From Candidatus Omnitrophota bacterium (lineage in GTDB: Bacteria; Omnitrophota; Gorgyraeia; Gygaellales; Profunditerraquicolaceae), in NCBI GenBank assembly GCA_041309145.1, contig JBFZAG010000079.1:15-64014 (forward strand): a stretch of 64,000 nucleotides of DNA, written 5' to 3'. The stretch's first letter is position 1. Each line of letters begins with the position of its first letter. The notes beneath the pieces are model-generated. The model worked only from the letters and a program-made list of their open reading frames with translations, made no database searches and was not told the DNA's origin. Made by a program: the position numbers and the translations under genes. This document shows, one piece after another, positions 9,108 to 37,532 of the stretch.

Positions 9108-10280
9108 TCAGCTCCTCAGGATCAGATATATCCCCAGAACATAAAACAAGACCGCGATCAAGACCTTGGAAAGCAGGAAATGTTTCTTCAGGAACCTGGA
9201 AAAATCCTCGGAAGTTGTTCCCGCTAACGCGCATAAAAATATCGCGAAAAGCGGCAAAACAAACATCAGATTATACAGCACAAGATAAGAAAAAGCTTTA
9301 AGTCGGATATCAGTGGATTTCAGCACAAAAGCAATGGTCGGCAAATACACCTGTCCGGTACAGACCGCCTCCAGAACAGAGATCAGAAATCCGGTCACCA
9401 GCGCGGTCGCGACCAGTTTCAAAAAAGATCCCGAACGAGAAGGCGCTGAAGCTTCCTTATTCTTGCGGTAATGCTCGCCGATTACTTTGTGGATCTGGTT
9501 TTTTACCGCCCGCGGCAGCTGAAGGCTCATGGCTTCGGTTTTGCCGGTTTTGAGGAATTTACCCAGATCAAAAGCCGCGATCATGCCGAATATCAAAGTT
9601 AAGATTCCGACGGTCAGGTTGAAGACCTTGCGCAGGACCCAGAAGCCTTTCAGGCTGTAAAAAAAGGTGAACATCCCCAGGCCGATCAAAAGATAAGTCA
9701 AAAATACCGCAAAGATAAAAAACAGGCCGATAACCGCGAGCTCTTTTTTCCTGTAGCCCTGGAGGGCCAGAAAAGAAATAAAAAAAACTATCACCGTAAA
9801 AGCGCAGGGGTTTATACCGTCGATAAGCCCGGCCCCGATGACCGTGAGCGGGGTAAAAGAAAGAAAGCTCTTGACCAGGTCGGCGTTCGGCCCGGGGTCT
9901 TCTAACGGGGAGCCTTTGTCCAGCTTTGAAGCGATGAGCTTTTCCAGCCCTTCGGAAATTTCTTTCTTCCCGCTTAAGAGCTTTTCCCCAAACTGCGCTG
10001 CCGGGACTGACCCTTTATGGTTTAAGCCGTATTTCTGTTTGAAGGCCAGAAGAAGCTTATAGTCCTCGATCTGACTTATATCGCGGAAACTAATTGTTAC
10101 CCGGTCTTTATATTTGGTTTCGATCCGGGCTATTACCTGTTCCCTGATTTCATGGCAGACGTGGCAGGAGGGAGAAAAGAAATAATTCAACTCGGGCTTC
10201 GGGGAAGGCGGATCTTGAGCAAAAACAAAACCGGCAAAACAAACGATTGCTAAAACCGCGCTAGTAAGATTTTTTAACAT
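9108..10280 (-). CDS. thioredoxin-like domain fused to DsbD/CcdA-type transmembrane thiol:disulfide transfer domain
   Basis: N-terminal signal peptide and CHVC redox motif. Downstream TM region carries the GINPCAF and EAVCTGQ cysteine motifs of the cytochrome c biogenesis DsbD/CcdA family. ATG at 10280 preferred over the TTG at 10301. Confidence 0.6.
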   Translation of the reverse strand: MLKNLTSAVLAIVCFAGFVFAQDPPSPKPELNYFFSPSCHVCHEIREQVIARIETKYKDRVTISFRDISQIEDYKLLLAFKQKYGLNHKGSVPAAQFGEKLLSGKKEISEGLEKLIASKLDKGSPLEDPGPNADLVKSFLSFTPLTVIGAGLIDGINPCAFTVIVFFISFLALQGYRKKELAVIGLFFIFAVFLTYLLIGLGMFTFFYSLKGFWVLRKVFNLTVGILTLIFGMIAAFDLGKFLKTGKTEAMSLQLPRAVKNQIHKVIGEHYRKNKEASAPSRSGSFLKLVATALVTGFLISVLEAVCTGQVYLPTIAFVLKSTDIRLKAFSYLVLYNLMFVLPLFAIFLCALAGTTSEDFSRFLKKHFLLSKVLIAVLFYVLGIYLILRS

Positions 10281-10303
10281 TAAAAAAGAATAAAATGACA
10301 AAA

Positions 10304-10771
10304 TTAATGTTCGTAGGTTTTAATGATCTTGAGTATTTCCTTCTTGTCTTTGGCGCTCTTCAAGCGGTCGACGATGAATTTATCCTTTACCAGGCGGGAA
10401 ATATCCGCCAGGATCTTCAAATGGCCTCCGATATCGGTTTCCGGAGAAGCTAAAATAAAAAAAAGATAGGTTTTTTCTCCGTCCAGCGCCCCGAAGTCCG
10501 TGCCCTCGGCATGCCGGGCAAAAGCGATTATGAAATCCTTGACTTTGGGGGATTTGGCGTGGGGAATAGCCACGCCGTTGCCGATGCCGGTGGAGCCTAA
10601 TTTCTCTCTTTTTAAGATCGCGTTGTAAAAGTTCTTCTTGTCTTTTAACTTTCCCGACTGGGATACAGCTTCCACTAACTCTTCTATGACTTTGTTCTTG
10701 GACTTCTCTTTCAAAGAAAGGATGATATACTTTTCTTTTAAGATACTGGAAAGCTTGGCGTCAGCGGCCAC
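10304..10771 (-). CDS. ptsN: PTS EIIA-Ntr-like nitrogen regulatory protein (PtsN family)
   Basis: 155 aa. GIGNGVAIPHAK active-site region of the PTS IIA type-2 fold. GTG start with GGAGGGA RBS. Confidence 0.6.
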   Translation of the reverse strand: MAADAKLSSILKEKYIILSLKEKSKNKVIEELVEAVSQSGKLKDKKNFYNAILKREKLGSTGIGNGVAIPHAKSPKVKDFIIAFARHAEGTDFGALDGEKTYLFFILASPETDIGGHLKILADISRLVKDKFIVDRLKSAKDKKEILKIIKTYEH

Positions 10772-10798
10772 AAGGCATCACTCCCTCCGGATTGACCT

Positions 10799-11779
10799 CT
10801 ACTCTACGGGGATCACTATCTTCATCCCCGCTCTAAGCTTATTGGGATTTTTGATCTTTTCTTTATTCAATTCGTAAAGGTATTTCCAACGGTGCGCTCC
10901 GCCCATTTCCTTCTGGGCGATCTTGGAAAGTGAATCTCCCTTTTGAACTGTATACTCCCTGGTCGAGACTTTGACTGCGCTCTCCACTTCTTCTTTGGTC
11001 TCTTCCACGAATTTGCCTTCTTCTATTTTCTGGGCGTCGGGAGGCATTACTTTCTGGATCTCCGTGCCGGAGGAACCGGACGGCGGCGCCGGGATCATGA
11101 TCTCTTCGACCTCGGCGACCATGAACTGGGCATTGCGGTCTTTCTGCATGCCCACCAGGTCCCGGACATGAGCCACCGCGTCAAGTTTGCCCCGGCTGAT
11201 GATCCGCACCCGCTCTTCGGCTACGCCGTTGTCCAGCATATAATTCTTGACCGCGTCGGCCCTTTTTCTTCCCAGTTTATCGTTATAAGCCTCGTTCCCC
11301 CGGGTATCGCAGTTGCCGGTGATCAGAATGTCGGCCTGAGGGTTCTTGTTCAAAGCTTTAACCGCGTCGGAAAGGATCGGCATCGCGTCCTGGCGCAAAG
11401 CCGCTTTATCGTAATCAAAATAGATCTTGACGTTCTTGATGATCTTGCGGATCAAAAGCGAAGGCCTCAATTCATCGGCCTTGGCCGCGGGAAGCTCATC
11501 GGCCTTGTAATCGTAGATGATCTTGTAGACATAAATATATCCCCGGTTGCCCCAGAGCTTGACCTGCCCGGGCTGCTCCGGCCACCACCAATATCCTCCG
11601 CGCTGGTCTTTGACCGGAGCGGGCTTGGCGTCAGTAGGCCACCAATCAAATTTTTTCTGCAGCGCTTCTAATTCGGTTTTTTTGCGCGCTTCCTTGTCCA
11701 CAGCGCAGCCGCTTGCCAAACCCGAAAAAATAACCCCGACCAGCAACAAAAACAACTTCTGCCTTAAAGCTTTTTTCAT
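10799..11779 (-). CDS. OmpA-family peptidoglycan-associated lipoprotein with C-terminal LysM domain
   Basis: Signal peptide with lipobox (LASGC). OmpA-like domain (ITGNCDTRGNEAYNDKLGRKRADAV). C-terminal LysM (YTVQKGDSLSKIA...IVIP). Confidence 0.65.
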   Translation of the reverse strand: MKKALRQKLFLLLVGVIFSGLASGCAVDKEARKKTELEALQKKFDWWPTDAKPAPVKDQRGGYWWWPEQPGQVKLWGNRGYIYVYKIIYDYKADELPAAKADELRPSLLIRKIIKNVKIYFDYDKAALRQDAMPILSDAVKALNKNPQADILITGNCDTRGNEAYNDKLGRKRADAVKNYMLDNGVAEERVRIISRGKLDAVAHVRDLVGMQKDRNAQFMVAEVEEIMIPAPPSGSSGTEIQKVMPPDAQKIEEGKFVEETKEEVESAVKVSTREYTVQKGDSLSKIAQKEMGGAHRWKYLYELNKEKIKNPNKLRAGMKIVIPVE

Positions 11780-12045: not shown

Positions 12046-13122
12046 CTACAGGTCAGTGGCGAAATTCTTGCCGGTGACCAGACCTTCTTTTTCCAGCCTG
12101 GGGAAGAAAAGCGGGTAATATTTGAGGGCGACTTTCAATTGCCCGACCACCGGGCCGCCGACCTGGGCCCTTTCCTGCTGGAAAGTGAAAAGATCATTAA
12201 AGACCATCTCTTCCCCCCGTATATCCCGGATCTCGGTAATATAGGTGATCCTGCGGATGCCGTCCCGAAAACGCTCCATATGCACTATTAAATTAATGGT
12301 CCCGGCGATTATCTTCCTGATCTCCCCGGACGACAAGTTCAATCCTAACATCAGCACCAGGGACTCAAGCCGCGAGATCGCTTCTTTCGGCGAATTTCCG
12401 TGGATAATCCCGATGCTCCCGGCGTGTCCGGTGGCCATGGCTTGAAGCATGTCGATCGCCTCCAGCCCCCTTATTTCTCCGAATACCAGCCGGTCCGGGG
12501 ACATGCGCAAAGCGTTCCTGATCAGATCGCGCAATGTCACTTCCCCCTTGCCGTTGACATCCGGATGGCGGGTTTCCAGGGAGATCACGTTTTCCTGCGC
12601 TATCTGCAATTCCGCGGCGTCCTCGATGGTCACGACCCTCTCTTCGGGGGAGAAATACTGGGAAAGGATCTGGAGCAGGGTGGTTTTGCCTACTCCGGTG
12701 CCCCCGGAAAAGATCATGTTGACCCTTCCCTTGACGCAAGCCACCAGCATATCCGCCGCTTTCTGGTTCAACATGCCCAGTTTAACCAGGTCTTCTAAAG
12801 TTTTGATGGTCTGGGAAAACTTCCTGAGGGTCAGCGCCGACCCGAAACGGGAAAGCGGAGGGATGATCGCGTTGATCCGCGTGCCATCCTCCAAACACAG
12901 ATCGGCGAAAGGAAAATCCTGATCGATGCGCCGGTTATGCGCGGCAAAAATATTCTTGATCAGGCTATCTAATTCCTCTTTGTTCTGAAAAACAACGCCC
13001 GAACCGGATTTTTTGCCTTTTCTTTCAATAAAGACCTTCTCGTGGCCGTTGATCATGATCTCCGATATCTCCGGGTCATCCAGAAGCTTCTTGATCGGTC
13101 CAAAGTCGATTGTTTTATCCAT
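12046..13122 (-). CDS. CpaF/TadA/VirB11-family secretion ATPase; no other tad, pilus or T2SS genes in the window
   Basis: 358 aa. Walker A GGTGVGKTT, Asp box, Walker B and His box (GHAGSIGIIHG) of the type II/IV secretion NTPase family. It sits 250 bp downstream of the giant ORF on the same strand. Confidence 0.7.
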   Translation of the reverse strand: MDKTIDFGPIKKLLDDPEISEIMINGHEKVFIERKGKKSGSGVVFQNKEELDSLIKNIFAAHNRRIDQDFPFADLCLEDGTRINAIIPPLSRFGSALTLRKFSQTIKTLEDLVKLGMLNQKAADMLVACVKGRVNMIFSGGTGVGKTTLLQILSQYFSPEERVVTIEDAAELQIAQENVISLETRHPDVNGKGEVTLRDLIRNALRMSPDRLVFGEIRGLEAIDMLQAMATGHAGSIGIIHGNSPKEAISRLESLVLMLGLNLSSGEIRKIIAGTINLIVHMERFRDGIRRITYITEIRDIRGEEMVFNDLFTFQQERAQVGGPVVGQLKVALKYYPLFFPRLEKEGLVTGKNFATDL

Positions 13123-13299
13123 TTTGTTTTTGCTCCTATTCTTAGAGATACTCTTTTATCTTCGAACTGATTGTTGATTATTATCGCACAAACATAAATT
13201 TATGGCAACAATTTTGCGTAAAAACCTCAGCGGGATCGCAGCAAAAAAGCAAGCTTTTTTCAGGAAGGAACCGGCGGAAGTTACCGGCAATGGCTTTTA

Positions 13300-13374
13300 A
13301 ATTTAAAAAGGGGCGCCAGGAGGAAGGTTGTTTGTATCTGACTGTAAGTAAACCCTCGACTGGGACGCCCCTTA
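13300..13374 (-). terminator. possible terminator after the giant ORF
   Basis: Inverted repeat aaggggcgcc/gggacgcccctt overlaps the stop codon. It is followed on the minus strand by TTTTTAAATTT. The large loop makes it weak. Confidence 0.3.
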
Positions 13375-16300
13375 ATTTAAACTGCTCTCCTGCGATGCCA
13401 GAAACCAAAGTGCGGATTTTACCTCTGAAGGAGCCTGTTCGCACTCCCCCTCTTGCGCACGCAATATCGCGGCCAGACAGAAAAGTAATCCCGGCCTGAC
13501 CAGGCTGACCTGCCCCTGCAAGCTTGCCGCTTGCAGTATCCCGAAGATCCTTTCTACTGACGGCGCCATTCCGCTTTCGGCTAGAGTCTGGACAGATTCC
13601 AGTTCGCTCTGGCAATCCATTGCTGTCAGATTAAAATCCGCTGCTCCGTAATTAAGCGTATCCAACGCTCCGCGGACCTGAAAGGGGATCTGGCTCAGAT
13701 CAATGCCCCCGCGGTCGCTTTTTTGCCCGCCGTCCAGCCTGCTGCCCTGCGCCGAATCTTGTGGCTCTGAGATCACAACGCTTTCCTTAGCCGCATTCTC
13801 CGGATCAATGATCTCTGGGGGGGCCATCCCGAATAAGATGCGGTCCAGCGCCGCGCCCATGCGGAAAGCAAAACTGTTATCGATAGTCTCATCGCTGTGG
13901 TGAGTATGGTCCCCGGGCTGCTCGAACAAAGCGTGATGCTGAGATTCATGCACCGAATCTTCCAGAAATTCCCACAGATTCTTCTCGTCGGTTCTTAAAG
14001 CCTCCCCGATCTTTCCTGCCTGAGCAAGGCCGGCAAGAGCGCGCATCCTGGCTTCCGAGTATTCCAGATTCCAGAAAAAATAGGTGTTGTTTTTCACAAA
14101 AGCTATTGCGGCCGTAGGGAAATAACCGTAAACGACCTTTGGGTTCTTGATGCCGATGGCTTGCAGCAAGCGGATAAAAAGCGGCTCAACATAAACCAGC
14201 GCTTCTTCAGGGACTTGTTTTTTTTCGGGAGCGGCTTTGCCCCTTTGGGCCATTTCCTGGCCCAATAAACCGGCCAGCGCCTGCCCAAAAAGGGACTCGA
14301 GCCCCGCGGCTTCCTCAACTTGTTCCCCAAAAGAGCCTGAAGGGATCTTCCCGCTGAAAATGTCCGAAAAAGAACGGCTGCCGATATCAGCCGCTTCGGC
14401 GCGCGCTTTCCTGAGTTTTGCTTCTTCCAGAAGCTTCTCGCGGATAAGATGCAGAGTGATCTTGCCGTTGTGATTGCTCGAAGTAAAAGGCACGTGGCTG
14501 AGCAATTCGAAAAATTTAAGCGGATCCCTGACAAACGGCTCGAGCATCCCGGAAGTTATCCCTTCATATTCTTTCTCCTCCATCAGCCCGGCGATCTTCT
14601 GGGCCAGGATATCGTCATAGGCTGTCTCATTGGAATAATAATCCTGCGGCTCGCCCGGTATAGGGGCGACCCGCTCGGAATAATCTTTCAGGACAGCTTG
14701 CATCATCGCGTGCAAAATCGCCACCTGCAGCCGGTGGAGGAACTTGCCCTCCTGAGAATAGCCGTTGCGGGGGATGTTCAGCATGATCTCCCGCGGGACC
14801 ATGATATGCAACCCGCCAAAACGCTGATAGGCGTCGATGATCCGCTGAGGAACGTATTTAAGCTCTTTAGGGTCCGGGAATTTGATGAAGATCCCGTCCT
14901 GGATCACCCGTTTATTCAGCTTCTCTTTGGCTCTGGCCAGGGTCACCGTGCCCCAGTTTTTGCCGATTTCCAAGCTGGCCGCAACTTTGATTTCCTCGCG
15001 GAATGTCTTGCCGTTATATCGGATCTCCACGTCCCGGGCGTCCGGCTCTGATCCCTGCTCTTTGCTGCTCTGCGGAGACTGGATCGCCCCTGCGAAGCGC
15101 TGCAAAGCTTCCTGGATAAAAAGGCTTTCCAGCTGGGGATCGCTGCCGGCCAGATTCTTTTTCCTGCGGATCTCCGTGCCTTTATATTTTCCTTTTAGCA
15201 CCTCCCAGGAAACGATTACCGGCCCCTTCTGCGGATCATTGGCGATCACCAGCTCATTGATCATTCCCTTGCCTTCGGAAGTGCGGATAAACACCTCGTC
15301 AAAATCCGCGAACAGAGTGTAGTTGCCCTGGCCGAGATTGCCGGTATCCTCCAAATAATTCTTGGATGACTCGTCCAGAGGGAAATAATAGCGCGCCAGC
15401 TTCCAGAAGTCCATGCCCACCGGGTCGCGGATAGAATAGACCCACTCTTTTTTGTTGATAAAATTGCGGTGAATGATCGCGCCCTCATTTATTGCCAGCT
15501 CTCCTTCTTCCCGGGCTTTGCGGATAGCGTCCCGGGGATTCTGGATCCCGACCTCGCGCACCCAGACCCGCTCAGTGCGGTCCTGGCTTTCGATAGCCGA
15601 GAGCACGATCTGCAAATACGCAGCCAAATTTATGCTTTTAGCTGCGCCAAGCATAGCCAGGAATTTCTCCGGGGTCAAGCCGGGATCAGCTTTGATCTCC
15701 TCGGCGTTTTTGTCAAAAACGTAATTCAGCGCTGCCAGGGGGATCGGTTCCTTGGCAATGTTAACGATCTCTTTCCAGGACGGGTCGCGGGGCTCGACCT
15801 CGGCTTCCTCGATAAATTCAATATCTTTCTCTTTCAGGAACCGGACCAGATTGCGCTCCAGGGGCGGCAAGCCGGAAAGGTCGTCCCGGCTGTCCAGCGC
15901 GGCAAATCCGGAGCGGATCAAAGGCAAAGGTTTTTCCTTTTGTCCCGGCATTTTAATTGCCTTGCTCAGATCCCAGGATATAAAACCATTAAAACCATCT
16001 AACCTCCCGCTATCTCTGGCCACCGCTGATAATTCCTTAAGAATAGGATCAAAATTTATATCGTGAAGATATAGCGATCCGCGTTCTTCTTTAATATCCT
16101 TGAGCTCATATTGCCGTATTACTTGATACTCGTTTTTCTCAAGATCCAGGCTGGCGTAAATAAGCTTCCCCTTGCGCATGCTATCATAGAAAACTATTAC
16201 CGGTTTTCCCTGGTAATACAATTCAGTCCCTATAACCTCTGATGGCAATGTATCTCTTCGGACATTGGAAAAAGCAGACAGGCCATTATCCATCAGGATT

Positions 16301-19300
16301 GGTGCAAGCCTGATCGAATGAGAAGATAAGCTGTCGATTAGTTCAGGTCCCGGCGCGGTTTTTTTATACCGGGATGAAATCGGGATCACTTCCATCGCCT
16401 TAGTCTCTTTATCCAGAGTCAGAATTTTTATCTGGCTATTATCCACAAACAAAAAGACAACCTTGCCCTTGATCTCAAAAGTGGCGCGCCGCAACGATAG
16501 TATTGCCAAGCTGGCTTTTATGCTGTTTAAAGGTAAAGCCCGATTATTGGCGCAGTCCAGGGTAAAAACAGTAGCTGTGTAATTATGAGCAATAAAAACC
16601 GGCTTGTTGTCATCGTATAAGCCGGTAAATTCAACTTCAGGATGATAATCCAAACCGTTTTTTTCGGGATCAAAGCCGGCGATCTCCTCGATCTTATTAT
16701 CCTGCTGATTAAATTTAAAAAACTTTATTTCCTTAGAAGCTTGTAATGAAAAAACAGGATCTTCGCCTAAATGCCAGCCGGTAAATAAGGGGTTTTCGAT
16801 AGAGCTTAAGAATTTGAGCCGGAACTGCGCTCTTTCCTCTTTCTCTCCGTTCTTATCCACCGAAAAAACTTTTATTTTTCCCAGGCTGGCTTTTTCATGA
16901 ACAGCAAAAAGCCGGCGACCTTGTTTATCTTTTCCCAGATATGCGGCTTTTTCCCCTTTTAAATAACTGTGCTCGATCTTCATTTCCCCATCTGAAGGCA
17001 TATTCTCCGGCTCAAGGATCAAGGGGGTAGAGATAGCGCTCGGCTGCCTGGCCTTGGGCTCGTTCAGCGCCGCGGACAAGTCCAGCGAAAATACCCCCCA
17101 GGAATTTTTCTCATCATAAATACGCACAACAGAGGTAAATTCTCTTTTCTGCGGATCATAAGCCAGGTCATCAAGGCTAAAATTACTGGACTCTTCTATC
17201 TTTGAATGATCCTGAACATCCAATAATAAGTTACTACCGGACTCGCGTGCTTTTAGATTTTTAATGTCAACTTCCTTGATCCGCTCATAAGCATTGCCTT
17301 CAATATCCCAGGAGGCAAATATCAGCTGAGCCGTATCAAAAGCGTCCCAAAATATTATAACCGGCTTGCCCTGGTAGGACATAGCCGTAACCACAGGATT
17401 TCTGGGCCATGTTGCCGGGTCAATTTGTTGCTGGTTGAGCGCAGAAAACTTTATCTGCCAGGTGCGGGGATCAAGAGTCAACGCGATAAGCCCGTCGCTA
17501 CCGTGGCCGATAAAAACCTCAGCCCCATTTGATTTAAACCCAGTAGCCCGCAATTTCCTTATAGTGTTCAGTCCCGGGATCTCTGTCAAAGCTGCCATGC
17601 TCTTACTTTTGAAATCCAGGGTAAAAGCCGTGATCTTTTGGGAATAACAAATAAATACCGGTAGATCGTTATGGTATAAACCGCTGAATAAGATCTCGTT
17701 ATGCAGGGAATCAAATACTGTTTCATCTCTGTCGAACCGGGCCAGTTCCCGGATAGACTTCTCCTCTATGCTGTAAGCGTAGAATTTTACCCCCTCTGAA
17801 GAAAAAGCCGAAAATACGGGGTCAACTCCAGCGTGCTTGAAACCGGTTATAGAAATCCCGGCGACTGAAGACAGTGTCATATTAGTGTCAAAATTAGCCA
17901 GCACGGTTTTTTGGTTGGTGCTGCGGTCTATTGAAAGAACCGTGAGCGTTTGGCGGTCTTTTTGTGATTGAAGATACAGTGGCTTTCCGCGTGCTTCAAT
18001 ATTCAAGCTAAGAACTCTTTGCTGCTCATCAATTGGTTCTTGGAACTCCATATTAAGGGCCACATCCGAAAGAATGCGCTCCGGAACCAGGATCTGGCTG
18101 GATAAAGGAAGCAGCGGCTCCTTGGGCGCGGATCCGACCAGAGCATCGGAAAGATCATATTCGAAGGCTTCGATAGCTCTGGCGCTTTCCGGGTCGTTAA
18201 ACAACAGCGTCAATTTACCGCTCTCCCGGTCGAACCTCATATCTCTAAAATTAGCCACGGCAAGCTCATTCGGATAATCCTTCAGTATCGCGCCGGCATG
18301 CTTTTCAGGATCCAGGCTTAAAATATAAACTCCGTTATTGACAGCCATGGCGATGATTGTGTTTCCTTGCTTATCCAGCCCGATCAAAGAAGAATCATAT
18401 ACCTGGCCCAGCCCTTCCGGCCAGGAATGCGGGATTTTTTCAAACTTCGAACCGTCCACTGCAAAAACTGCCGGTTCGCCTCCAAGACAAGTAACCAAGA
18501 ACATGGGCTTACCGCCTCTGTCAAGACCGATCGGCTTCACTGACCCGATTCCCTGATTTGAGGATAAAACTACTATGCCATCCATAACCTCAGCTGTTCC
18601 ATGAATAAAATCAATCGCATAAAAATAAATGTGATTACCCGAGGTTGCCGTGAAAACAGGCTGGCCATCCTTGTTCATTCCCGTAAATTCCACTCTATTA
18701 CTCGAACCCAAGGCATTGCCTTGCTGATCAAAAATCACGCTTATCAGGCTCACTTTATTGTTTTCCATATCAAAAGCCATAAAAGCTACCCTGCCGTCAT
18801 CGGATTGGGCAACAAATACCGGCTTATCGCCCTGGAAATTCATGCCGGTAGCGATCACCCCGTTGCCAGGGAAAAAAGCCAAACCAAAATCAGTCAGCTG
18901 CATATTCTTCCGGCTGTCCCGGTCAACAGTAAAAATGTTGATTATATTCTTATTATTTTCATCCATTGCCGCGAAAAGCGGGTTACCGTCTTTATATGTG
19001 CCCAGCCGCTGGCTGGTTTTAGGAATATCGAAATAATGAAGTTTATGTTCGGTGACCAAACTAACAGGCAGTTTCTCAGGATCGACAATCTTAAAATCGT
19101 CCGCCGCTTTTTTGCCCTCAGCAGCTTTGAATTGCACGACCCGCAAAGACCCGTCATTGGGCGCGCTCAGCACCAGCCTGCCGTCGCCCAGGTAACTCAT
19201 CCCCTTCGGAATCAGCTCTCCCATTGAGCTCCATACTTCCTCACCGCTTTCCAGATCAATAATGATGGTGCGCAAACCGCCTTCCTCGCCTTTCTGCATG

Positions 19301-22300
19301 GCAAGCTTATTGTCGCCCAGATAAGCCAGGTTTGACTGATACTTATACGAAGGTTCGATCAAGGTTGTCGTGTGCATTCTTGACAACTGGCCGTCTTTCT
19401 CCTCAGCGAACTCGATCACCCGGATCCTCCCGTCATAATAGTCGCCCGCTGCCAATCTGTGATTGCCCAGGTAAGCTAATCCGCCGATCTCGTCCAAATC
19501 GTCTTCAGAATGCCGGATAACCTTTTTTGTTTTAAGGTCAAAAATTGCGATCCCTTCCTTTGCGCGGGAAGAACCGACAGCGAGTCTCCCCTCGCCCATA
19601 TACGCCAAAGACGAAGGAGACTCTATTCCCAGATCTTTCCCGGAAATCGCCGGGCCCATGGACTTAGTGTCGATATCAACAATAAAAATATTCTCCCCGT
19701 TGCTTGCCGCCAATTGGTCATTTCCCAGGTAAGCCAGACTTTTACCGTCAAAATTATAGAAAAACTCTTCCCGTTCCTGCCAGTTGTCCGCATCGATTAT
19801 CTTTATGCTTTTTGTTCCCCGATCCGCTATTGCCAGGCACCCCTTGAAAAGACCGTCTGTTATAAACGCGCTGACTCCCGGTTCCAGCAAACCTATATTA
19901 CTTATGGTCGTGACGCTTTCCGCGGAGCTGAAATCGTATTTTCCACTGGCCGCTGGTCTTTCTTGAGGCACAGCTTCCTGCTCCCGGACGAATTCCTTTT
20001 TCAGCATCTCGTAAAATTTATTGGCAGCCTGGGGATTGTTCTTGTAGATGCGCATCCAGCGCAAAATAAGCCTTTTGGCGCTATTGCCCTCAACATAACC
20101 AAGCCCCTCATTGATGGCTTGAAAACAGTCTTCATAGCCCTCCAGGTTTTTATCCTTAAAAACCTCTTGCGCGTACTCAAAGATCTCTTCATCCAGCAGG
20201 GCAACCGCTTTGGCCTCGACCTGGGAGATCAATGAATGCAGGATCCCGTTGCCGTTGAACCGGCGCAAACTGCCGGCGATCAGAAGATTGGAAGCATAAC
20301 GGTTCAAACGCGAGGGGTATTCCCGGTTGCCGAAATAAGCTCCGTGCACAGCCAGAAAATTTGCATCCGGCATAAAAATTCCGGCGGGGAATTTCAGCAA
20401 GGCCGAAAAGGCCTCTTGATCGGTCTCCTGGAAAGGCAGGATCTTCCCCCAATCAATGAGCTCGCGCAGGCTCGTTGGTATCCCTCCGGCGAAATCATTC
20501 AGGCGGATAAAAAGCTCTTCCAGGGCTTTTTCATCACTGGGATTATTCTTCAGGTGATCATGCAGCCATTGCTTTTGTTCTTCGGAAAGGACGGCGTTGA
20601 GAAAGGCTTTTTTCTCCAGTAATGGCAGTAATTGTACTTGCAGCTTCTTTTCCTGTTCCAGCCTTTTCTCATAAGGCAAAAACCAGCCTTTGTCCGGATT
20701 GCGCTTGCCGTATCCCACAAAAAAGTTCAGCCGCAGGTTCAACAGCAGCGGATACTCTTTCCATTTTTCGTAGATCGTTCTGTTGACCAGAATATAAGGG
20801 CCGAAAGTAAGATAGCTCAGGCGGGAAGATGCCTGGAACGGGACAGTGAAGGCCTTCTTGAACTTAGCTTTGGCGAAGCCAGCGGAAATATCTTCCGCTC
20901 CCGGGATCTGCTCAGGCGAGATGCTGTAGATCAGCTCTTCATCCAGGAAGAGCGTAGCCTCGGGATATTCTATCTGGTGGAACAGGCTGTCATTCGGCAG
21001 GATCAGTTTATTCTGCCGCATCACAAACGGGATGAGCTGGCCTTTTGCCGAATCAAGCAAAGGCTGCAGGGCTCCCACCCGCTTGTTCTTTCCGTCCAGA
21101 AGCTTGACCGCCTGCATGAAACCGTTGATCAGCGAAACCTGGTGGATGGGGTTCTTGGCGCTGATCTTGTCGGCCAGGGCCTTGATCGCGGCATGGGTGC
21201 TTTCGTCGATCTCGATCTCGTTGCGGGAAACCGGAAGCCGGGTGGATGACGGCAGCTGAATGACCAGCTCCTGCGGCAGGTCATAGCCGGATACCTCAAA
21301 CGACTGGATATTGATCCCGGCGACCTGGAAGACGATCCGGCATAATCCTTCCTTGCCGGCAAAGCTTGCGGCCCGGTAAAACAAATGCACCTGCCCGGAG
21401 ATCTCTTCCTCCGACTGCTGTTTAGGTATGGGGTTGTTTTCGCCTAAGCGCGGCACAAGATATTTCTTGAAGATCACCTCATCCGACATCCCGCTTCCCC
21501 TGTCTTCGACGATTATCCTGCCGTCTTGCACAGCCACGTCAATGCGCTTGCCGGGAAAATCGTAACGCAGGGTCTCGCCGTTGAGATAAACGTAAGAATC
21601 CAGCGGATTGAGCAGTTCGCCGTTCAAATAAACCGGCATCCGGGTAAAAAGATTAAGCCGGGAGCGCAGGTATTCAATGACCTCTTTTTCCACTCCGGCC
21701 ATATGGCCGGGGATTTCAATGTCGATAATGGTCCCGTTGGTTTCTTTGGTGGTTTTTTCGGCGGTAAAATAAATACCTTTGTCCTTGCCTCTGAAGAACT
21801 CGATCTGCCTGGCCTTGTTGCTTGAGGTAGCGGTCTGCACCCCGATCCTTCCGCCCTCATTCACAAAAGCCAGCATCTGCAAGCCGCCCATGCCGAACCT
21901 GCCTATGGACTGGCTTCTGCCGGTAATGGCGTCCGAGCAATTGGATACCAGCTCCAGGATCGACTGCAAAATGGTATCCGCCTGCCGGGTGATCAAAGGC
22001 TGGATATTCGCTGGCCCGTAATTACCGGCGTAGACTCTTTCCCGCAAAGCCTTAAGGTCATTGAAATCCTCAGCGCCATTTCCTTTTTCAGCCAGAGAAA
22101 CTTTTATATAGCGGATATAATCGGCAAGCGGTATCCCTCTGTTTTCGAGATCAAGGCCCAAAGCCCGTTTAGGGAGCGCGGGCTTTTCCGGAGCGGGAAT
22201 AATAGTTGCCCGGTTGTCTTCTTTTATTTTGAAACTGATCTTCAAAAAGTTCAGCTTTTCCGCGATAAATTTCAGGATGCCGGAAAATGCGCCCCCGGAG

Positions 22301-23388
22301 ATTATGATCCTGCCTCCGTCAGCCAGATTTGATCCGCTCTTCGGGTCAAAAATTATCCCGCCGCTGAAATACTGCCTTATTGTCAGCCCGTACGGGGTCT
22401 GGACGTTTTTCTGCAGATTATATTCTCCCTTTTTGAACGATCTTTGATACTCCTTAAAATACGTATCCTTTGTCCATTGGGTTACCGAAATCAACCCTTT
22501 TAACTCCCGGCTGTCGATCTTGGAAAGCAAAAAATCATGTTCTCCTTGTGACTTTGTGACCTGTGACCTCGTGACTTTGTCTTTAAACCACTGCGCCAGT
22601 ATCAGCGAGTAATAAACCTGGCGCAGGGCGGCGTAGCGCTTAGAGGTATTCACTTCTTTGGTCAGTTTGGGCAGGATCAATTCCCGGATCAGGAGAGAGG
22701 AATAATCATTGATCTTTTTTAAGCGCGGGTCATTAAATGCGCGCTCCGCAGAATCTTTCCGGTAATCCGCTTCCAGCATCACTTTTAAATTAGCCTTGTA
22801 GATATAGGCGTTGTCCGGGGATTCGCTGATGATCACTTCACCGGGAACGATCCAGGGGCGGGTCAAAGTGGGAATGCTGATGTTTTCGGACCCGAACAAT
22901 TCTTCGGCTTTAAGATAAAGCTTGTCCCAGTAATCTTTTCCTTCAGGGGTATCCGGAGAAGTATGCTTAGCAATGTCTTTTTTGAGCTGGACATCGGCTT
23001 CGAGCATGATCCTGCCCAGGTCGGTCTGGGCCAGACGATCATCAATTACTTCATCCGGGGAATCCGGCCGCAAATTTACCCAGAACATGCTGTCAGGCAG
23101 GGCCAGCCCGATCTGGAAATACTCCATTAATTTTCCGGCGGCTTCCTCTATTTGCGGAGGTTTCAAGTCGTTAATATCTCCTTTGTCCAAAAGGAAAACA
23201 AAATTCTTTCCGGAAGGAATATAAGTCAGGCTTCTTAAATGAGCGGGACGGAATATATCTTTAAGGGGAACAGACGGGTTCGGAAAAGCGGGAAGGCTTA
23301 TCTGTGGCCCGACCTGGCTGAAGCCGGCCTGCTCAAAAGTAAGACAGAAAACTATCAGCAGAGTAATAACTTTTTTCATCATTCTCAT
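13372..23388 (-). CDS. giant secreted multidomain protein (3338 aa): signal peptide, ~450-aa N-domain, GHKL/HSP90-like motif segment, long array of ~50-60-aa beta-rich repeats (propeller-like), ~900-aa non-repetitive C-terminal region with a His-rich patch
   Basis: Single uninterrupted 10,017-nt ORF with ATG start. N-terminal signal peptide MRMMKKVITLLIVFCLTFEQAGFSQ. Recurring motifs LAYLG[ND]..LA and G.PVF....G...F (more than 15 copies). ELVSNCSDA at aa 479, IGRFGMGG at aa 495 and IVEDRGSGMSDEVI at aa 626. HESQHHALFEQPGDHTHHSDE near the C-terminus. Confidence 0.8.
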   Translation of the reverse strand: MRMMKKVITLLIVFCLTFEQAGFSQVGPQISLPAFPNPSVPLKDIFRPAHLRSLTYIPSGKNFVFLLDKGDINDLKPPQIEEAAGKLMEYFQIGLALPDSMFWVNLRPDSPDEVIDDRLAQTDLGRIMLEADVQLKKDIAKHTSPDTPEGKDYWDKLYLKAEELFGSENISIPTLTRPWIVPGEVIISESPDNAYIYKANLKVMLEADYRKDSAERAFNDPRLKKINDYSSLLIRELILPKLTKEVNTSKRYAALRQVYYSLILAQWFKDKVTRSQVTKSQGEHDFLLSKIDSRELKGLISVTQWTKDTYFKEYQRSFKKGEYNLQKNVQTPYGLTIRQYFSGGIIFDPKSGSNLADGGRIIISGGAFSGILKFIAEKLNFLKISFKIKEDNRATIIPAPEKPALPKRALGLDLENRGIPLADYIRYIKVSLAEKGNGAEDFNDLKALRERVYAGNYGPANIQPLITRQADTILQSILELVSNCSDAITGRSQSIGRFGMGGLQMLAFVNEGGRIGVQTATSSNKARQIEFFRGKDKGIYFTAEKTTKETNGTIIDIEIPGHMAGVEKEVIEYLRSRLNLFTRMPVYLNGELLNPLDSYVYLNGETLRYDFPGKRIDVAVQDGRIIVEDRGSGMSDEVIFKKYLVPRLGENNPIPKQQSEEEISGQVHLFYRAASFAGKEGLCRIVFQVAGINIQSFEVSGYDLPQELVIQLPSSTRLPVSRNEIEIDESTHAAIKALADKISAKNPIHQVSLINGFMQAVKLLDGKNKRVGALQPLLDSAKGQLIPFVMRQNKLILPNDSLFHQIEYPEATLFLDEELIYSISPEQIPGAEDISAGFAKAKFKKAFTVPFQASSRLSYLTFGPYILVNRTIYEKWKEYPLLLNLRLNFFVGYGKRNPDKGWFLPYEKRLEQEKKLQVQLLPLLEKKAFLNAVLSEEQKQWLHDHLKNNPSDEKALEELFIRLNDFAGGIPTSLRELIDWGKILPFQETDQEAFSALLKFPAGIFMPDANFLAVHGAYFGNREYPSRLNRYASNLLIAGSLRRFNGNGILHSLISQVEAKAVALLDEEIFEYAQEVFKDKNLEGYEDCFQAINEGLGYVEGNSAKRLILRWMRIYKNNPQAANKFYEMLKKEFVREQEAVPQERPAASGKYDFSSAESVTTISNIGLLEPGVSAFITDGLFKGCLAIADRGTKSIKIIDADNWQEREEFFYNFDGKSLAYLGNDQLAASNGENIFIVDIDTKSMGPAISGKDLGIESPSSLAYMGEGRLAVGSSRAKEGIAIFDLKTKKVIRHSEDDLDEIGGLAYLGNHRLAAGDYYDGRIRVIEFAEEKDGQLSRMHTTTLIEPSYKYQSNLAYLGDNKLAMQKGEEGGLRTIIIDLESGEEVWSSMGELIPKGMSYLGDGRLVLSAPNDGSLRVVQFKAAEGKKAADDFKIVDPEKLPVSLVTEHKLHYFDIPKTSQRLGTYKDGNPLFAAMDENNKNIINIFTVDRDSRKNMQLTDFGLAFFPGNGVIATGMNFQGDKPVFVAQSDDGRVAFMAFDMENNKVSLISVIFDQQGNALGSSNRVEFTGMNKDGQPVFTATSGNHIYFYAIDFIHGTAEVMDGIVVLSSNQGIGSVKPIGLDRGGKPMFLVTCLGGEPAVFAVDGSKFEKIPHSWPEGLGQVYDSSLIGLDKQGNTIIAMAVNNGVYILSLDPEKHAGAILKDYPNELAVANFRDMRFDRESGKLTLLFNDPESARAIEAFEYDLSDALVGSAPKEPLLPLSSQILVPERILSDVALNMEFQEPIDEQQRVLSLNIEARGKPLYLQSQKDRQTLTVLSIDRSTNQKTVLANFDTNMTLSSVAGISITGFKHAGVDPVFSAFSSEGVKFYAYSIEEKSIRELARFDRDETVFDSLHNEILFSGLYHNDLPVFICYSQKITAFTLDFKSKSMAALTEIPGLNTIRKLRATGFKSNGAEVFIGHGSDGLIALTLDPRTWQIKFSALNQQQIDPATWPRNPVVTAMSYQGKPVIIFWDAFDTAQLIFASWDIEGNAYERIKEVDIKNLKARESGSNLLLDVQDHSKIEESSNFSLDDLAYDPQKREFTSVVRIYDEKNSWGVFSLDLSAALNEPKARQPSAISTPLILEPENMPSDGEMKIEHSYLKGEKAAYLGKDKQGRRLFAVHEKASLGKIKVFSVDKNGEKEERAQFRLKFLSSIENPLFTGWHLGEDPVFSLQASKEIKFFKFNQQDNKIEEIAGFDPEKNGLDYHPEVEFTGLYDDNKPVFIAHNYTATVFTLDCANNRALPLNSIKASLAILSLRRATFEIKGKVVFLFVDNSQIKILTLDKETKAMEVIPISSRYKKTAPGPELIDSLSSHSIRLAPILMDNGLSAFSNVRRDTLPSEVIGTELYYQGKPVIVFYDSMRKGKLIYASLDLEKNEYQVIRQYELKDIKEERGSLYLHDINFDPILKELSAVARDSGRLDGFNGFISWDLSKAIKMPGQKEKPLPLIRSGFAALDSRDDLSGLPPLERNLVRFLKEKDIEFIEEAEVEPRDPSWKEIVNIAKEPIPLAALNYVFDKNAEEIKADPGLTPEKFLAMLGAAKSINLAAYLQIVLSAIESQDRTERVWVREVGIQNPRDAIRKAREEGELAINEGAIIHRNFINKKEWVYSIRDPVGMDFWKLARYYFPLDESSKNYLEDTGNLGQGNYTLFADFDEVFIRTSEGKGMINELVIANDPQKGPVIVSWEVLKGKYKGTEIRRKKNLAGSDPQLESLFIQEALQRFAGAIQSPQSSKEQGSEPDARDVEIRYNGKTFREEIKVAASLEIGKNWGTVTLARAKEKLNKRVIQDGIFIKFPDPKELKYVPQRIIDAYQRFGGLHIMVPREIMLNIPRNGYSQEGKFLHRLQVAILHAMMQAVLKDYSERVAPIPGEPQDYYSNETAYDDILAQKIAGLMEEKEYEGITSGMLEPFVRDPLKFFELLSHVPFTSSNHNGKITLHLIREKLLEEAKLRKARAEAADIGSRSFSDIFSGKIPSGSFGEQVEEAAGLESLFGQALAGLLGQEMAQRGKAAPEKKQVPEEALVYVEPLFIRLLQAIGIKNPKVVYGYFPTAAIAFVKNNTYFFWNLEYSEARMRALAGLAQAGKIGEALRTDEKNLWEFLEDSVHESQHHALFEQPGDHTHHSDETIDNSFAFRMGAALDRILFGMAPPEIIDPENAAKESVVISEPQDSAQGSRLDGGQKSDRGGIDLSQIPFQVRGALDTLNYGAADFNLTAMDCQSELESVQTLAESGMAPSVERIFGILQAASLQGQVSLVRPGLLFCLAAILRAQEGECEQAPSEVKSALWFLASQESSLN

Positions 23389-28081: not shown

Positions 28082-30556
28082 TTATTTTATCTTGGTTATC
28101 TTGAATACTGCCTGGCCTTCCGGGTCGGCGACATAGAGATTGCCTTCCGGGTCCAAAGCCAGGGATTCCGGCCCGACCAGACCGTCCCTCCAATCAGCGA
28201 TAACGATCTTCTCGCCGCTTACTTGTTTGAATTGATAAATTTCGGCAGCCTCATCGGAACTCACGTAGATACTTCCGTCCTTATCGATGGCTATGCCTTC
28301 CGGACCGGGAAGTCCGCGTTTCGTCTCTATCAACTTTGCTTTAAAACCGTCGGCCTGATCGATGCTGATTTTGGAAAGACTTTTTTCCCCGTCTTCCGTC
28401 AGATAAAAATATCCCTGATGATAAACAATTTTTCTCGGCTCGAAATACTCGATCCCTTCCACAGTTCTGGCCTTTCCGTTATCCAGAACCAAGATTTTGT
28501 GTTTCTGTTCATCGGCGATATAAATCCTGCCCTGTTCATCAAGGGTTATGCCTTCGGGCGAAAACACTCCATCTTTTCTTGAAGCCAAAACTTCAACAGC
28601 GAAAGAGGCCCCCACGCGGTAAATATTGCCTGTGTCGCCGGTAGCAAAAAGCTCGCCGTTTTTACTGACAACCATCTCCCGGAATGCGGCGAGGTCTCTC
28701 CGGCACGCCCGGCTTAGTCTATTCCCCTCATATTTGAATATATTCTCAAAAGTCGAAATGTATAATAACCCTTTTCCAGCGTCAAAAGCCACTCCCATAG
28801 GCATGAATAATCCGTCGTCCAGGCCGCTTAGTTTCTGGATCCGATAGATTCCTTCTGCCGCTTCGCTCTTTTTCCTGTCCGGGGGCAGGAAATTCACCTC
28901 ATAAATAACCGCTTTTTTTATCCCCGCGGAATGAACATAAACTTTTCCGGTTTTAGATACTGCGATACCGCCTAAATGTCTCAGGGTCGACTGGTTGATC
29001 TTGACCGCGCCTTCAAGTTTTCCTTCCGGATTAAATTTATAGACCGTGCTGCTCTCTTCATCTGCCACATAGACAAATCCTCCGGAATCAATTGTTATAG
29101 CCCCCGGGCCGATCAATCCGGATTGATTGTCCGCAAAAACGCTTACCTTTCCCTGAGGCGATATTTTCAGGATCCGGTCATCCCACTCCGGAGCCACATA
29201 AATAAAATCTTTTGAATCAATTTCGATGTCCTCCAGACAGCGCAATCCGTCTTTCTGGGTGATAAATTCTGAGACTGCTCCCTGAGGAGTGATCTTAAAG
29301 ATAATCTTTGCTTTTTCATCTCCGATAAAGGCATTCCCGGATCTATCGAAAACCAGGGCCTGTGGCTCTTGAAGCCCTATTTTGCCGTCCGCGTAGACTG
29401 AAATGGCATTATTTTTCTTATTTATCTTGAAAACCTTGCCGGCTGAATCATCGGAAATATAACAATTACCGAAGGCATCCCAAGTTATCCCTTCGGGGTC
29501 CTGCAGCCCCTTTTCATAATCCATTACAATTTCCCGGGAGGAAGAATCTTTGTTTATCCTGACAATGCTCCGGCCTTCTCCGCAATACAGATTATCGTCC
29601 TTATCGAACTTCAGGACGTCGGATGAATTATTCCCCAGGGCATAAACAAACCGGTAGCCCTTAGAAACTTTTTTCGGAGCTATCCTGATAATCCTGGTGT
29701 TGGCAGGGTATGTCCCGGTGAGCAGGCAAATCGAGCCGTCTTTGCCGATTATCGGCCTTGAATGCGCTTTATGGTAGGAACTTAAAATGGCGATACTCCT
29801 GAATTCTCCGTAGCGGGTCATCACAAAAATCTCTTTCCCGCCTTTATCCAGGAGATAAATTTGGGAGCCGTTACCGCTGACGGCGATACTGCCGAGATCC
29901 TTGTTTTTCGGGATATCGTAGCTGATTTTGTAATTTTCCCCTTCCCGGCCCGAAACATAGATTTTCCCTGAGCCGGCCAGAATATACATGTTGTTTTCCC
30001 GGTCAAAACAGATGTCCCGGACAGGAAAATCAAATTTCCGCTGTTTAAGAACTCCGCGCTTGCTTAAATAATATACTTTGCCGGAGAGTTCTTCTGTTAT
30101 GTAGATCGTATCCTTAAAGTCTATCGCCAAACGGCCCGGCTTTAAAACAGCGCTGATTTTGGCCAGAGACAACTTCTTGCCGTCATTGTTCATCTTAAAA
30201 ACCTCGGTTCCATCTAATCCGATGATGCTGCCTTGAGAGCTAAGAGCGACATCAATTATTCCCTCCGGCAAGACGGGTCCCGAGCCGAAAGAAAGAAGCT
30301 TTCCCGGTTCCGGCCATAAAAATGCCCGCTTATCCTGATTCACGATGCAAAGCCCGCCTTCGGTATCAGCCGCGATTAAAGCCGGATGCCCCAACTGTTT
30401 ATTCCTGTAAAATAAATTCTCAACAATATAGCCGTCAACGGCTAAAACATTATTATACATTTCGATCATTTCCTTATGCTCGGCCGGGAATCCCTGGCTC
30501 AAACAATCCGCCGCCGTCAAAAACAAGAAAAGAATCGCAAAAAATATCTTGAGCAT
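28082..30556 (-). CDS. secreted NHL-repeat / six-bladed beta-propeller protein
   Basis: 824 aa. Signal peptide. Repeated G..EP.GIA.D..GN.Y[VI][AS]D motifs typical of NHL/SMP-30-type propeller blades. Confidence 0.6.
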   Translation of the reverse strand: MLKIFFAILFLFLTAADCLSQGFPAEHKEMIEMYNNVLAVDGYIVENLFYRNKQLGHPALIAADTEGGLCIVNQDKRAFLWPEPGKLLSFGSGPVLPEGIIDVALSSQGSIIGLDGTEVFKMNNDGKKLSLAKISAVLKPGRLAIDFKDTIYITEELSGKVYYLSKRGVLKQRKFDFPVRDICFDRENNMYILAGSGKIYVSGREGENYKISYDIPKNKDLGSIAVSGNGSQIYLLDKGGKEIFVMTRYGEFRSIAILSSYHKAHSRPIIGKDGSICLLTGTYPANTRIIRIAPKKVSKGYRFVYALGNNSSDVLKFDKDDNLYCGEGRSIVRINKDSSSREIVMDYEKGLQDPEGITWDAFGNCYISDDSAGKVFKINKKNNAISVYADGKIGLQEPQALVFDRSGNAFIGDEKAKIIFKITPQGAVSEFITQKDGLRCLEDIEIDSKDFIYVAPEWDDRILKISPQGKVSVFADNQSGLIGPGAITIDSGGFVYVADEESSTVYKFNPEGKLEGAVKINQSTLRHLGGIAVSKTGKVYVHSAGIKKAVIYEVNFLPPDRKKSEAAEGIYRIQKLSGLDDGLFMPMGVAFDAGKGLLYISTFENIFKYEGNRLSRACRRDLAAFREMVVSKNGELFATGDTGNIYRVGASFAVEVLASRKDGVFSPEGITLDEQGRIYIADEQKHKILVLDNGKARTVEGIEYFEPRKIVYHQGYFYLTEDGEKSLSKISIDQADGFKAKLIETKRGLPGPEGIAIDKDGSIYVSSDEAAEIYQFKQVSGEKIVIADWRDGLVGPESLALDPEGNLYVADPEGQAVFKITKIK

Positions 30557-30557
30557 A

Positions 30558-35909: not shown

Positions 35910-35929
35910 GATCCCTCCTAGTCCAGGTG

Positions 35930-36685: not shown

Positions 36686-36728
36686 TCTCTTTCGACTTGT
36701 GACATTTGACTTGTGACGTGTGACTTTC

Positions 36729-37475: not shown

Positions 37476-37532
37476 ACATCTTTACCCTCAAAGTCAAAGT
37501 TAGTTTTTCGGGTAAAAAACTTTTACCCGTAA

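Follow-up and report, generated by a model that had tools for sequence, protein, structure and literature searches.

A giant protein of an Omnitrophota bacterium belongs to a large family with conserved ends and variable middles

A 64,000-nucleotide stretch of DNA from a Candidatus Omnitrophota bacterium (the window; GenBank assembly GCA_041309145.1, contig JBFZAG010000079.1) carries on its minus strand a 10-kb gene at 13372-23388, which encodes a signal-peptide-bearing protein of 3338 amino acids (aa), hereafter the giant. The giant is a member of a very large, multi-copy and essentially phylum-restricted family, the proteins of which combine a signal peptide, a conserved N-terminal domain (the head), a freely variable middle and a conserved C-terminal tail. 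The importance of the gene is that it exposes this bookended family, and not a gene pair: an earlier note on the same DNA had joined the giant to a secretion-type ATPase gene directly downstream, but this ATPase most likely has no part in the giant-protein system.

A protein family defined by a conserved head and tail

The head of the giant spans aa ~46-348 (22345..23253, minus strand) and is a well-folded predicted alpha/beta domain of ~300 aa that has no match among the solved structures of the PDB. An exhaustive family search that used the first 360 residues of the giant as query, with clustering at 50% identity, detected the head in 7,424 protein clusters, and in 5,493 of these the match had E<=1e-30. 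The N-terminal domain, which had at first been described as a unique region of ~450 aa, is far from unique and characterises thousands of paralogues. The match to the head starts within the first ~110 residues in all 150 proteins listed, nearly always at residue 1-30, and 119 of the 120 giant homologues listed share residues ~3-348 at 54-65% identity. The last ~110 residues are common to approximately 40 of these 120 homologues, and the region between the two ends is present in only about a dozen. At least 585 head-bearing stretches are present in species-representative genomes, almost all of them in metagenome-assembled genomes that carry the name Omnitrophota; the labels Planctomycetales, Deltaproteobacteria and Colwellbacteria on a few others are taken to be binning or naming noise.

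The tail of the giant spans aa ~3225-3338 (13375..13716, minus strand) and consists of a GGID(F/L)..P motif followed by a four-helix unit. Across the family, the motif reads GGID(F/L)xxLP and is followed, after a variable spacer, by ...IPSxERIKEYL...CIADILRLEEE..., and the unit was modelled as four helices with a predicted local distance difference test score (pLDDT) of ~80-90. A hidden Markov model of the tail matches 183 of 218 family proteins, and 180 of 196 matches lie no more than 40 residues from the C-terminus. Head and tail occur together in 182 proteins with lengths of 640-6,439 aa, and both ends are conserved at the protein level at about 50-65% identity. The middles recorded in Pfam include enolase, phosphoglucomutase (PGM), triose-phosphate isomerase (TIM), hexokinase, PPDK and radical SAM enzymes, as well as GNAT domains, SAM methyltransferases, metallophosphoesterases, receiver domains, HEAT/TPR repeats, AAA and HATPase_c. 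A Pfam scan of eight members identified an M23 peptidase with DUF7790, a PrmA-like methyltransferase and a Glu/Leu dehydrogenase domain, with no match in the remaining five.

A second type of head, LPxPGxMV...LWVNLSPYEKxRI, is present in four orthologues of the giant, P0004, P0005, P0006 and P0008 (loci L002, L003 and L005). All four of these proteins also possess a variant tail, GGIDLN...GFxPVIxxIxPxxLPxLLG, which is absent from all 207 proteins that have the common head. The variant-head proteins nevertheless keep the middle of the giant, comprising the first ATPase-like module, the repeat arrays (of propeller type in P0006) and the second ATPase-like module described below. Since the same payload occurs with two matched sets of head and tail, the ends can be read as a functional pair fitted to lineage-specific machinery. 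The variant tail, near the C-terminus, resembles a distinct proline-rich hydrophobic sorting signal.

Several copies of the family are present per genome, and tandem pairs occur occasionally, as in L008, L018, L025, L057 and L084. On the contig of the orthologue P0003, a second family gene, frameshifted in that assembly, directly follows the giant orthologue (L001, 19657-26690) and fills the slot that is held by the ATPase gene in the window.

The giant gene and its signal peptide

The open reading frame (ORF) at 13372-23388 (minus strand) comprises 3338 codons without an internal stop. In DNA of 49% GC, the random expectation for a stop-free run of this length is ~(61/64)^3338, or ~e^-160, and the ORF therefore cannot be a chance open frame. 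An NCBI protein of 3335 aa (P0001) is identical to the giant but begins three codons further in, and seven full-length orthologues (P0002-P0008) with 35-77% identity are present in independent assemblies, which argues that the giant is a real gene and no frameshift artefact. The ORF is a genuine Omnitrophota gene, and the named source titles of its relatives are Candidatus Omnitrophota or Omnitrophica throughout. The first ATG (23380-23388) gives the N-terminus MRMMKKV, the NCBI protein and its relatives begin MKKV or MLKKV, and translation probably begins 1-3 codons downstream of 23388. The GC content and codon usage of the giant and ATPase genes are within the range of the neighbouring genes, and horizontal acquisition, for which the earlier note had proposed this comparison, was rejected. 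The uninterrupted 10-kb ORF of that note is borne out by the stop-free codons, P0001 and the orthologues, which also argue against its caveat that a frameshift found on resequencing might split the ORF; its description of a giant secreted repeat protein from a candidate phylum agrees with a signal-peptide-bearing giant, the phylum being Omnitrophota.

The N-terminus of the giant, MRMMKKVITLLIVFCLTFEQAGFS|QV, has the outline of a cleaved Sec signal (aa 1-24; 23317..23388, minus strand), with a K/R-rich n-region, a 12-residue h-region, small residues at -3 and -1 and a GFS|Q site, in agreement with the clean signal peptide first described. By inspection of the giant and 197 family members, the N-terminus has the features of a Sec signal peptide of the signal peptidase I type. 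The family motif, FEQxGF(A/S)|Q in the giant, is found in the form (E/Q)QxGFAQ in 197 of 217 family proteins, where it ends at a median of residue 26, and an AxA|Q-type site is kept in the signal peptides of both head types. The signal peptide is the strongest hydrophobic segment of the giant, although its score is below the usual transmembrane level, and a scan of the whole protein identified no further segment hydrophobic enough for a transmembrane helix.

Two GHKL modules and a zincin-like domain

The middle of the giant contains two GHKL ATPase-like modules and a zincin-like domain, which were revealed by profiles and models only; single-sequence PDB searches of aa 1-400, 400-1140, 1140-2480, 2480-3200 and 2997-3200 gave nothing significant. 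Module 1 (aa ~445-780; 21049..22056, minus strand) possesses an N-box (ELVSNCSDA), a G2-like motif (GRFGMGG) and a G1 motif (EDRGSGM), in that order, and all three are invariant among orthologues, including residues E35, N39 and D42 and the signatures GRFGxG and DxGxGM. The HSP90/MutL-like ATPase motifs that had been noticed by eye are therefore present, at aa ~474-640. A profile of module 1 built from eight orthologues matches TRAP1/HtpG with E = 2e-5 in three pieces that are out of order, and in an hhalign comparison of module 1 with module 2 the N-box aligns and the G1 segment is skipped. In all orthologues, the G1 motif (DxGxGM) of module 1 lies behind the G2 box and the sheet that follows it (aa ~474-670; ~21379-21969). 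Module 1 appears to be a segment-permuted Bergerat (GHKL) fold.

Module 1 is followed by a region of unassigned function (aa 781-1139; 19972..21048, minus strand) that is conserved and subfamily-specific, being present in all orthologues with 93% identity in P0002 and 61% in P0003. This region has no PDB sequence match and, by hhalign, no similarity to the region after module 2. The idea that module 1 forms a full Hsp90-like unit was dropped, as the regions after the two GHKL domains show no similarity to each other in this comparison.

Module 2 (aa ~2560-3040; 14269..15711, minus strand) is Hsp90/TRAP1-like, with a GHKL N-domain of canonical Hsp90 type at aa ~2595-2770 and a middle-like domain. 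It possesses an N-box (ExxxNxxDA), a G1 motif (DxGxG) and a G2 motif (GxxGxG) in the expected order together with a fold match, and its profile matches HSC82/HtpG with E = 5e-9. An AlphaFold2 model of aa 2480-3338 has a pLDDT of 75, and Foldseek aligned the module 2 model with full-length TRAP1/HtpG over ~700 columns with E = 2e-8 and TM-scores of 0.25-0.34. Both GHKL modules keep their ATP-binding residues unchanged in all orthologues, even at identities as low as ~30%.

A zincin-like domain (aa ~3041-3190; 13819..14268, minus strand) follows module 2 and contains a conserved HESQH...GDHTHH signature at aa 3147-3165. This HExxH domain is minigluzincin-like in its modelled fold and is a predicted peptidase. 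Seven of seven orthologues keep HESQH followed by EQPGDHTHH (~13894-13950), and these additional histidines next to HExxH may form a second metal site or a regulatory switch. The non-repetitive C-terminal region of ~900 aa with a His-rich patch, as first outlined, was correct with respect to the patch, which is the HExxH...GDHTHH signature, but module 2 within the same region had been missed.

Repeat arrays between the ATPase-like modules

Four repeat arrays lie between the region of unassigned function and module 2. The first (aa 1140-1433; 19090..19971, minus strand) contains 5-6 LAYLG-type blades, five of which are clear (aa 1218, 1261, 1304, 1354 and 1397), with a possible degenerate sixth. 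Three homologous units of ~350 aa follow (aa 1434-1769, 1770-2123 and 2124-2485; 15934..19089, minus strand), each containing 5-6 GxPVF-type blades, and self-comparison of these units gave E values down to 4e-23. The repeats total about 21-23 with a period of 43-55 aa, in line with an initial count of more than 15 beta-rich copies with LAYLG and GxPVF signatures.

A Pfam scan of the whole giant gave two sub-threshold propeller hints only, WD40_CDC20-Fz at aa 1218-1331 (E = 0.0027, 17.5 versus a cut-off of 200) and Lactonase (16.2 versus 21.7), and an NCBIfam scan of four segments gave nothing. A profile of the repeat unit has weak matches in the PDB, all of which are beta-propeller proteins, the best being FAP52 (E = 0.0066). 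The orthologue P0006, which is named a WD40 repeat protein at its source, has WD40-type beta-propeller families on record in Pfam, most likely in its middle. The period and the number of blades also fit a propeller. Judging from these features, the four repeat arrays are probable beta-propellers. They are also the fastest-diverging part of the giant: the first array and units 1 and 2 share 51-69% identity with P0002, the closest orthologue, as against 89-94% for the ATPase modules. RHS, LPXTG, cohesin and Ig readings of the giant were rejected, as none has a Pfam profile match, and the earlier statement that RHS repeats, LPXTG and classical adhesin domains are lacking holds.

The downstream ATPase is a conserved orphan

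The gene downstream of the giant (12046-13122, minus strand) encodes a stand-alone, CpaF/VirB11-like ATPase of the T2SSE family with 358 aa, which matches Pfam T2SSE (PF00437) with 179.5 bits against a cut-off of 24.9 (E = 1e-52) and possesses a Walker A motif (GGTGVGKTT), a Walker B-like motif and a His-box. Its scores are below the trusted cut-offs of the NCBIfam models for TadA-type (TIGR03819; 275.8 versus 373.15), TrbB (TIGR02782; 197.8 versus 304.55) and VirB11 (TIGR02788; 196.7 versus 249.95) ATPases. Besides this ATPase, no gene of a pilus, a type II secretion system (T2SS) or a type IV secretion system (T4SS) is present among the 50 scanned window ORFs of at least 150 aa, which are every large non-overlapping ORF of the window. 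The T2SSE match and the lack of partner genes support the description of the gene in the earlier note as an orphan of the CpaF/TadA/VirB11 family with no other pilus, T2SS or T4SS gene in the window.

The same note had further proposed that the giant and the ATPase constitute a two-gene module in which the ATPase is a dedicated export or remodelling motor. The two genes lie on the same strand with a gap of 249 bp, and the whole arrangement of MutL-MutS, giant and ATPase is kept in P0002, the giant of which is 68-77% identical. T2SS- or Tad-like genes have also been reported near giant genes of Omnitrophota (West-Roberts 2023; Nielsen and Lui 2026). Adjacency of a large protein and the ATPase is kept only in very close relatives, namely on the contigs of P0002 and P0221. 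In a genome with an 83%-identical ATPase orthologue, the local synteny is the same (OmpA-LysM, EIIA, DUF1573, M48 and ackA), and the ATPase is preceded by a different protein of 1302 aa with no Pfam match. The three closest genomes with the ATPase at this locus all have a large protein before it, two of which are orthologous giants and the third of which, the 1302-aa protein, may also be a family member; this weighs against a complete separation of the ATPase from the family. In relatives, a different family member may occupy the same syntenic slot.

Beyond these close relatives, the linkage disappears. There is no T2SSE gene within 10 kb of the giant orthologues P0003, P0005, P0006 and P0008 (identities of 52%, 40%, 35% and ~31-44%), so that the pairing is lost at giant identities of 52% and below in the test of conserved synteny that the earlier note had itself suggested. 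A tblastn search with the ATPase against 80 head-gene loci, each taken with flanks of up to 10 kb at either end, gave a match in 0 of 80. Conversely, Omnitrophota hold many ATPase orthologues (355-358 aa, at least 57% identical). The orthologue with 72% identity has unrelated neighbours, one orthologue has PilM/N-like genes ~8 kb away, and in three genomes those with 65, 62 and 59% identity are part of one and the same housekeeping block near the origin (L007, L088 and L089, each at 10001-11074). The order of this block is dnaN-dnaA, yidC, parAB, ndk, gmk, rpoZ, a coaBC-like flavoprotein gene, the ATPase gene and thrS-infC-rplT-pheST.

The two genes of the window are also separated by candidate transcription signals. 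A terminator-like hairpin (13303..13373, minus strand) begins at the stop codon of the giant, with a predicted folding energy of -25.1 kcal/mol (z = -3.3 versus shuffles), and is followed by UUUUU; it was missed by a simple terminator scan because of its long loop. A putative sigma-70-like promoter for the ATPase gene (13180..13208, minus strand; TTGCCA, 17-nt spacer, TG-GATAAT) matches the consensus at 10 of 12 positions with an extended -10, a consensus match alone, and lies 58 nt upstream of the ATPase ATG. To our knowledge, there is no route by which a lone cytoplasmic hexameric ATPase, lacking platform, secretin and pilin genes, could export a Sec substrate. The two-gene module is largely refuted by these results, and we regard a dedicated motor as highly improbable. 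The ATPase would instead be a separately transcribed conserved orphan, the ancestral place of which is the housekeeping block, and its adjacency to the giant would reflect local synteny. That a secretion-type ATPase behaves like a housekeeping gene is unexplained.

A proposed role for the family and its alternatives

We consider it somewhat better than an even chance (approximately 0.55) that the giant is an exported payload carried between head and tail address or anchor tags and acts on a host or at the cell surface. The conserved signal peptide would carry the protein over the inner membrane via Sec and be cleaved at GF(A/S)|Q, and the head and tail would jointly serve as common address or anchor tags on the payload. 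One shared, lineage-matched machinery may read these tags and export the protein further, attach it to the surface or pass it to a host cell. The payload of the giant would be a protein-handling machine, in which the two GHKL modules form an ATP-driven clamp, the fast-evolving propeller-type blades bind targets and the minigluzincin-like HExxH domain serves as a small peptidase. Given that the GHKL modules and many paralogue enzymes need ATP or cofactors, the site of action should contain ATP; in combination with the export signal, this favours action on or inside a partner cell, whether host or prey, or at a sealed zone of contact, over action in the free periplasm, and agrees with the predatory or parasitic lifestyle proposed for the phylum. 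More tentatively, and at odds that we would put clearly below even, the signal peptide, head and tail together may represent an undescribed phylum-wide sorting and delivery system for thousands of payloads, with lineage-matched types of head and tail.

Several points weigh against this interpretation. The export, anchoring and delivery steps are deduced from sequence features; the machinery that would read the head or tail was not found, and six upstream neighbourhoods of orthologous giants are all different. ATP-dependent domains are unexpected outside the cytoplasm, and the protein might stay inside the cell despite its signal-like N-terminus. Only four proteins of the variant type are available, probably from one lineage, and the co-variation of head and tail could reflect shared descent. 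The propeller assignment draws on periodicity, sub-threshold matches and one orthologue.

The main rivals to an exported, tagged payload are a role as a surface adhesin and retention in the cytoplasm. As a surface coat or adhesin, the head or tail would anchor the protein, the propellers would bind a host surface, and the GHKL and enzyme-like domains would be structural and without ATP turnover. The signal peptide, the lack of transmembrane helices and the fast-evolving propeller arrays are all consistent with such a role, as are the M23 peptidoglycan peptidase of some paralogues and published views of Omnitrophota giant ORFs as adhesins or cell-wall degraders. A purely structural function is, however, difficult to reconcile with ATP-binding residues that are invariant in both GHKL modules to ~30% identity and with the many paralogues that carry cofactor-dependent cytoplasmic enzymes (radical SAM, hexokinase, PPDK), and neither the Pfam scan nor the tail model revealed an LPXTG, PEP-CTERM or beta-sandwich C-terminal domain (CTD) of the type IX secretion system (T9SS). 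We estimate that a coat or adhesin accounts for the family with a likelihood of about one in four. That the proteins are not exported, the N-terminal stretch being a membrane tether or inactive and the family comprising large multi-enzyme scaffolds in the cytoplasm or at its membrane face, would agree with payloads that are overwhelmingly of cytoplasmic type and dependent on ATP or cofactors, and with the report of Nielsen and Lui that many longer giants have transmembrane segments only and lie in bulk within the cytoplasm. The ~12-residue h-region, preceded by K/R and followed by an AxA|Q-like site, nevertheless has the shape of a cleaved Sec signal that places the bulk of the protein outside; the strict retention of this signal-like motif in most members (197 of 217) is hard to explain if it is unused, and M23 peptidase payloads act on peptidoglycan. 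Retention in the cytoplasm is accordingly judged unlikely.

A different type of explanation is that the conserved 5' and 3' gene ends are recombination handles that allow cassette shuffling or gene conversion and so diversify a surface repertoire. The multi-copy nature of the family with its tandem pairs, the wholly different middles between ends of the same type, and the occurrence of a different member in the same syntenic slot of relatives would all be expected from such a process. The ends are only 50-65% identical in protein, however, and include a well-folded predicted domain, which indicates selection on protein function and not on DNA identity. Recombination as the reason for the conserved ends is rated as quite improbable, only slightly above the ATPase motor considered earlier, although a role as recombination handles and a role as tags could coexist.

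Other features of the window

The rest of the window is of a housekeeping nature and includes MutS/MutL upstream of the giant, two pst operons, PhoU copies, PhoR/PhoB, a porin and ribonucleotide reductase. The region at 35241-52320 is unusually rich in phosphate-uptake genes, with two consecutive pstS-C-A-B-like operons, two stand-alone PhoU genes and a fusion of a Na/Pi cotransporter with PhoU, as well as the porin, an extra receiver-domain protein and a PhoR/PhoB-like pair. At 28082-31952, a beta-propeller protein of NHL/SGL type (824 aa) and a 464-aa protein with no Pfam match lie beside a GAF-ANTAR regulator, and this trio is kept in the P0002 contig. Two ORFs of ~400 aa (9108-10301 and 59667-60878) have no significant Pfam family; the first has a sub-threshold tetraspanin match and overlaps the start region of the DUF1573 gene.

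Implications

Omnitrophota are widespread and ultra-small, and their small genomes spend a striking share on huge proteins of unassigned role. A predatory or parasitic lifestyle has been proposed for the phylum (PMC10066038; bioRxiv 10.1101/2023.11.21.568195), and published work treats its giants largely as sequence-unique and poorly conserved. With more than 7,000 clusters that share a head and tail around interchangeable middles, there is now a concrete handle on these proteins: the cargo set of any genome can be listed from sequence, and the site of action of enzyme-laden proteins becomes directly testable. If the ends are true tags, a common receptor or transport machinery is expected, which could be traced by the two types of head and tail, and the head/tail system has a fair chance of being a new sorting pathway. 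The analysis also removes a misleading lead, the orphan ATPase as a partner, and adds two curiosities: the apparent segment-permuted GHKL domain and a stand-alone CpaF/VirB11-like ATPase that resembles a housekeeping gene.

Comparison with known systems

Cargo proteins of the T9SS of Bacteroidota comprise dozens to hundreds of unrelated payloads per genome, and their CTD is a beta-sandwich of ~80-100 aa. The family resembles them in placing one conserved terminal tag, after a Sec signal, on diverse payloads. Unlike this cargo, the family has a tail that is modelled as four helices and has no Pfam CTD match, possesses an additional conserved head of ~300 aa and belongs to another phylum, with no T9SS genes in view. 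The TpsA exoproteins of two-partner secretion are likewise very large and carry a conserved domain of ~250-300 aa right after the signal peptide. This N-terminal TPS domain is the secretion handle and is a right-handed beta-helix with NPNL/NPNGI motifs, whereas the family head is mixed alpha/beta with no PDB match. No Pfam haemagglutination-activity domain was found, and no TpsB/Omp85-type gene neighbours the family genes in the window or at the loci of the relatives.

The individual domains also depart from their closest counterparts. In contrast to the Hsp90 family (HtpG, TRAP1 and GRP94) and sacsin, module 2 is embedded in a signal-peptide-bearing multidomain protein, in which it shares 13-22% sequence identity with the Hsp90 family, a zincin-like domain stands ahead of the tail and the G1 motif of module 1 has moved behind G2. 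The zincin-like domain differs from minigluzincins (projannalysin and selecase) and from small metallopeptidases of the Wss1 type in its extra GDHTHH histidine cluster, which is not a known feature of these families. The neighbouring ATPase shares the T2SSE fold family and the Walker A, Walker B-like and His-box motifs with the CpaF/TadA, TrbB and VirB11 ATPases, but it falls below all the equivalog cut-offs and stands without pilus or secretion genes; no platform, secretin, pilin or channel gene of a Tad, T2SS or T4SS locus is present among the scanned window ORFs.

The closest comparison is with the giants of Omnitrophota themselves, as large and giant ORFs are a recognised hallmark of the phylum (Seymour et al. 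2023, PMC10066038; West-Roberts et al. 2023, bioRxiv 10.1101/2023.11.21.568195; Nielsen and Lui 2026, bioRxiv 10.64898/2026.06.07.730766). The focus of these studies is on ORFs of more than 20 kb or proteins from 10,000 aa upwards, which are described as mostly sequence-unique and rich in transmembrane helices, often with a SecA-like, C39 or dockerin domain and with T2SS/Tad loci on their flanks. Many of them carry signal peptides, and they have been proposed to act on a host or prey. The window protein shares with them the phylum, a very long, modular and poorly annotated architecture and a repertoire of domains (HATPase_c, methyltransferase, GNAT, HAD, PGM, radical SAM, HEAT, WD40 and NHL), but at 3,338 aa it has no transmembrane, SecA-like, C39, dockerin or T2SS/Tad features. 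The Archaeovorin/Dockerin genes of West-Roberts are defined by a length of more than ~25-30 kb, many transmembrane regions, SecA DEAD-like or dockerin/TSP3 domains, a T2SS-like locus upstream and pilZ downstream, whereas the window gene is 10 kb long, encodes no transmembrane segment beyond the signal peptide and no such Pfam domains, and has MutS/MutL upstream. Within a limited literature set, these giant-ORF papers and further literature contain no mention of a shared head, signal motif or tail. Large modular exported proteins are a known feature of Omnitrophota, and the shared head/tail family to which the giant belongs is an apparently undescribed addition to them.

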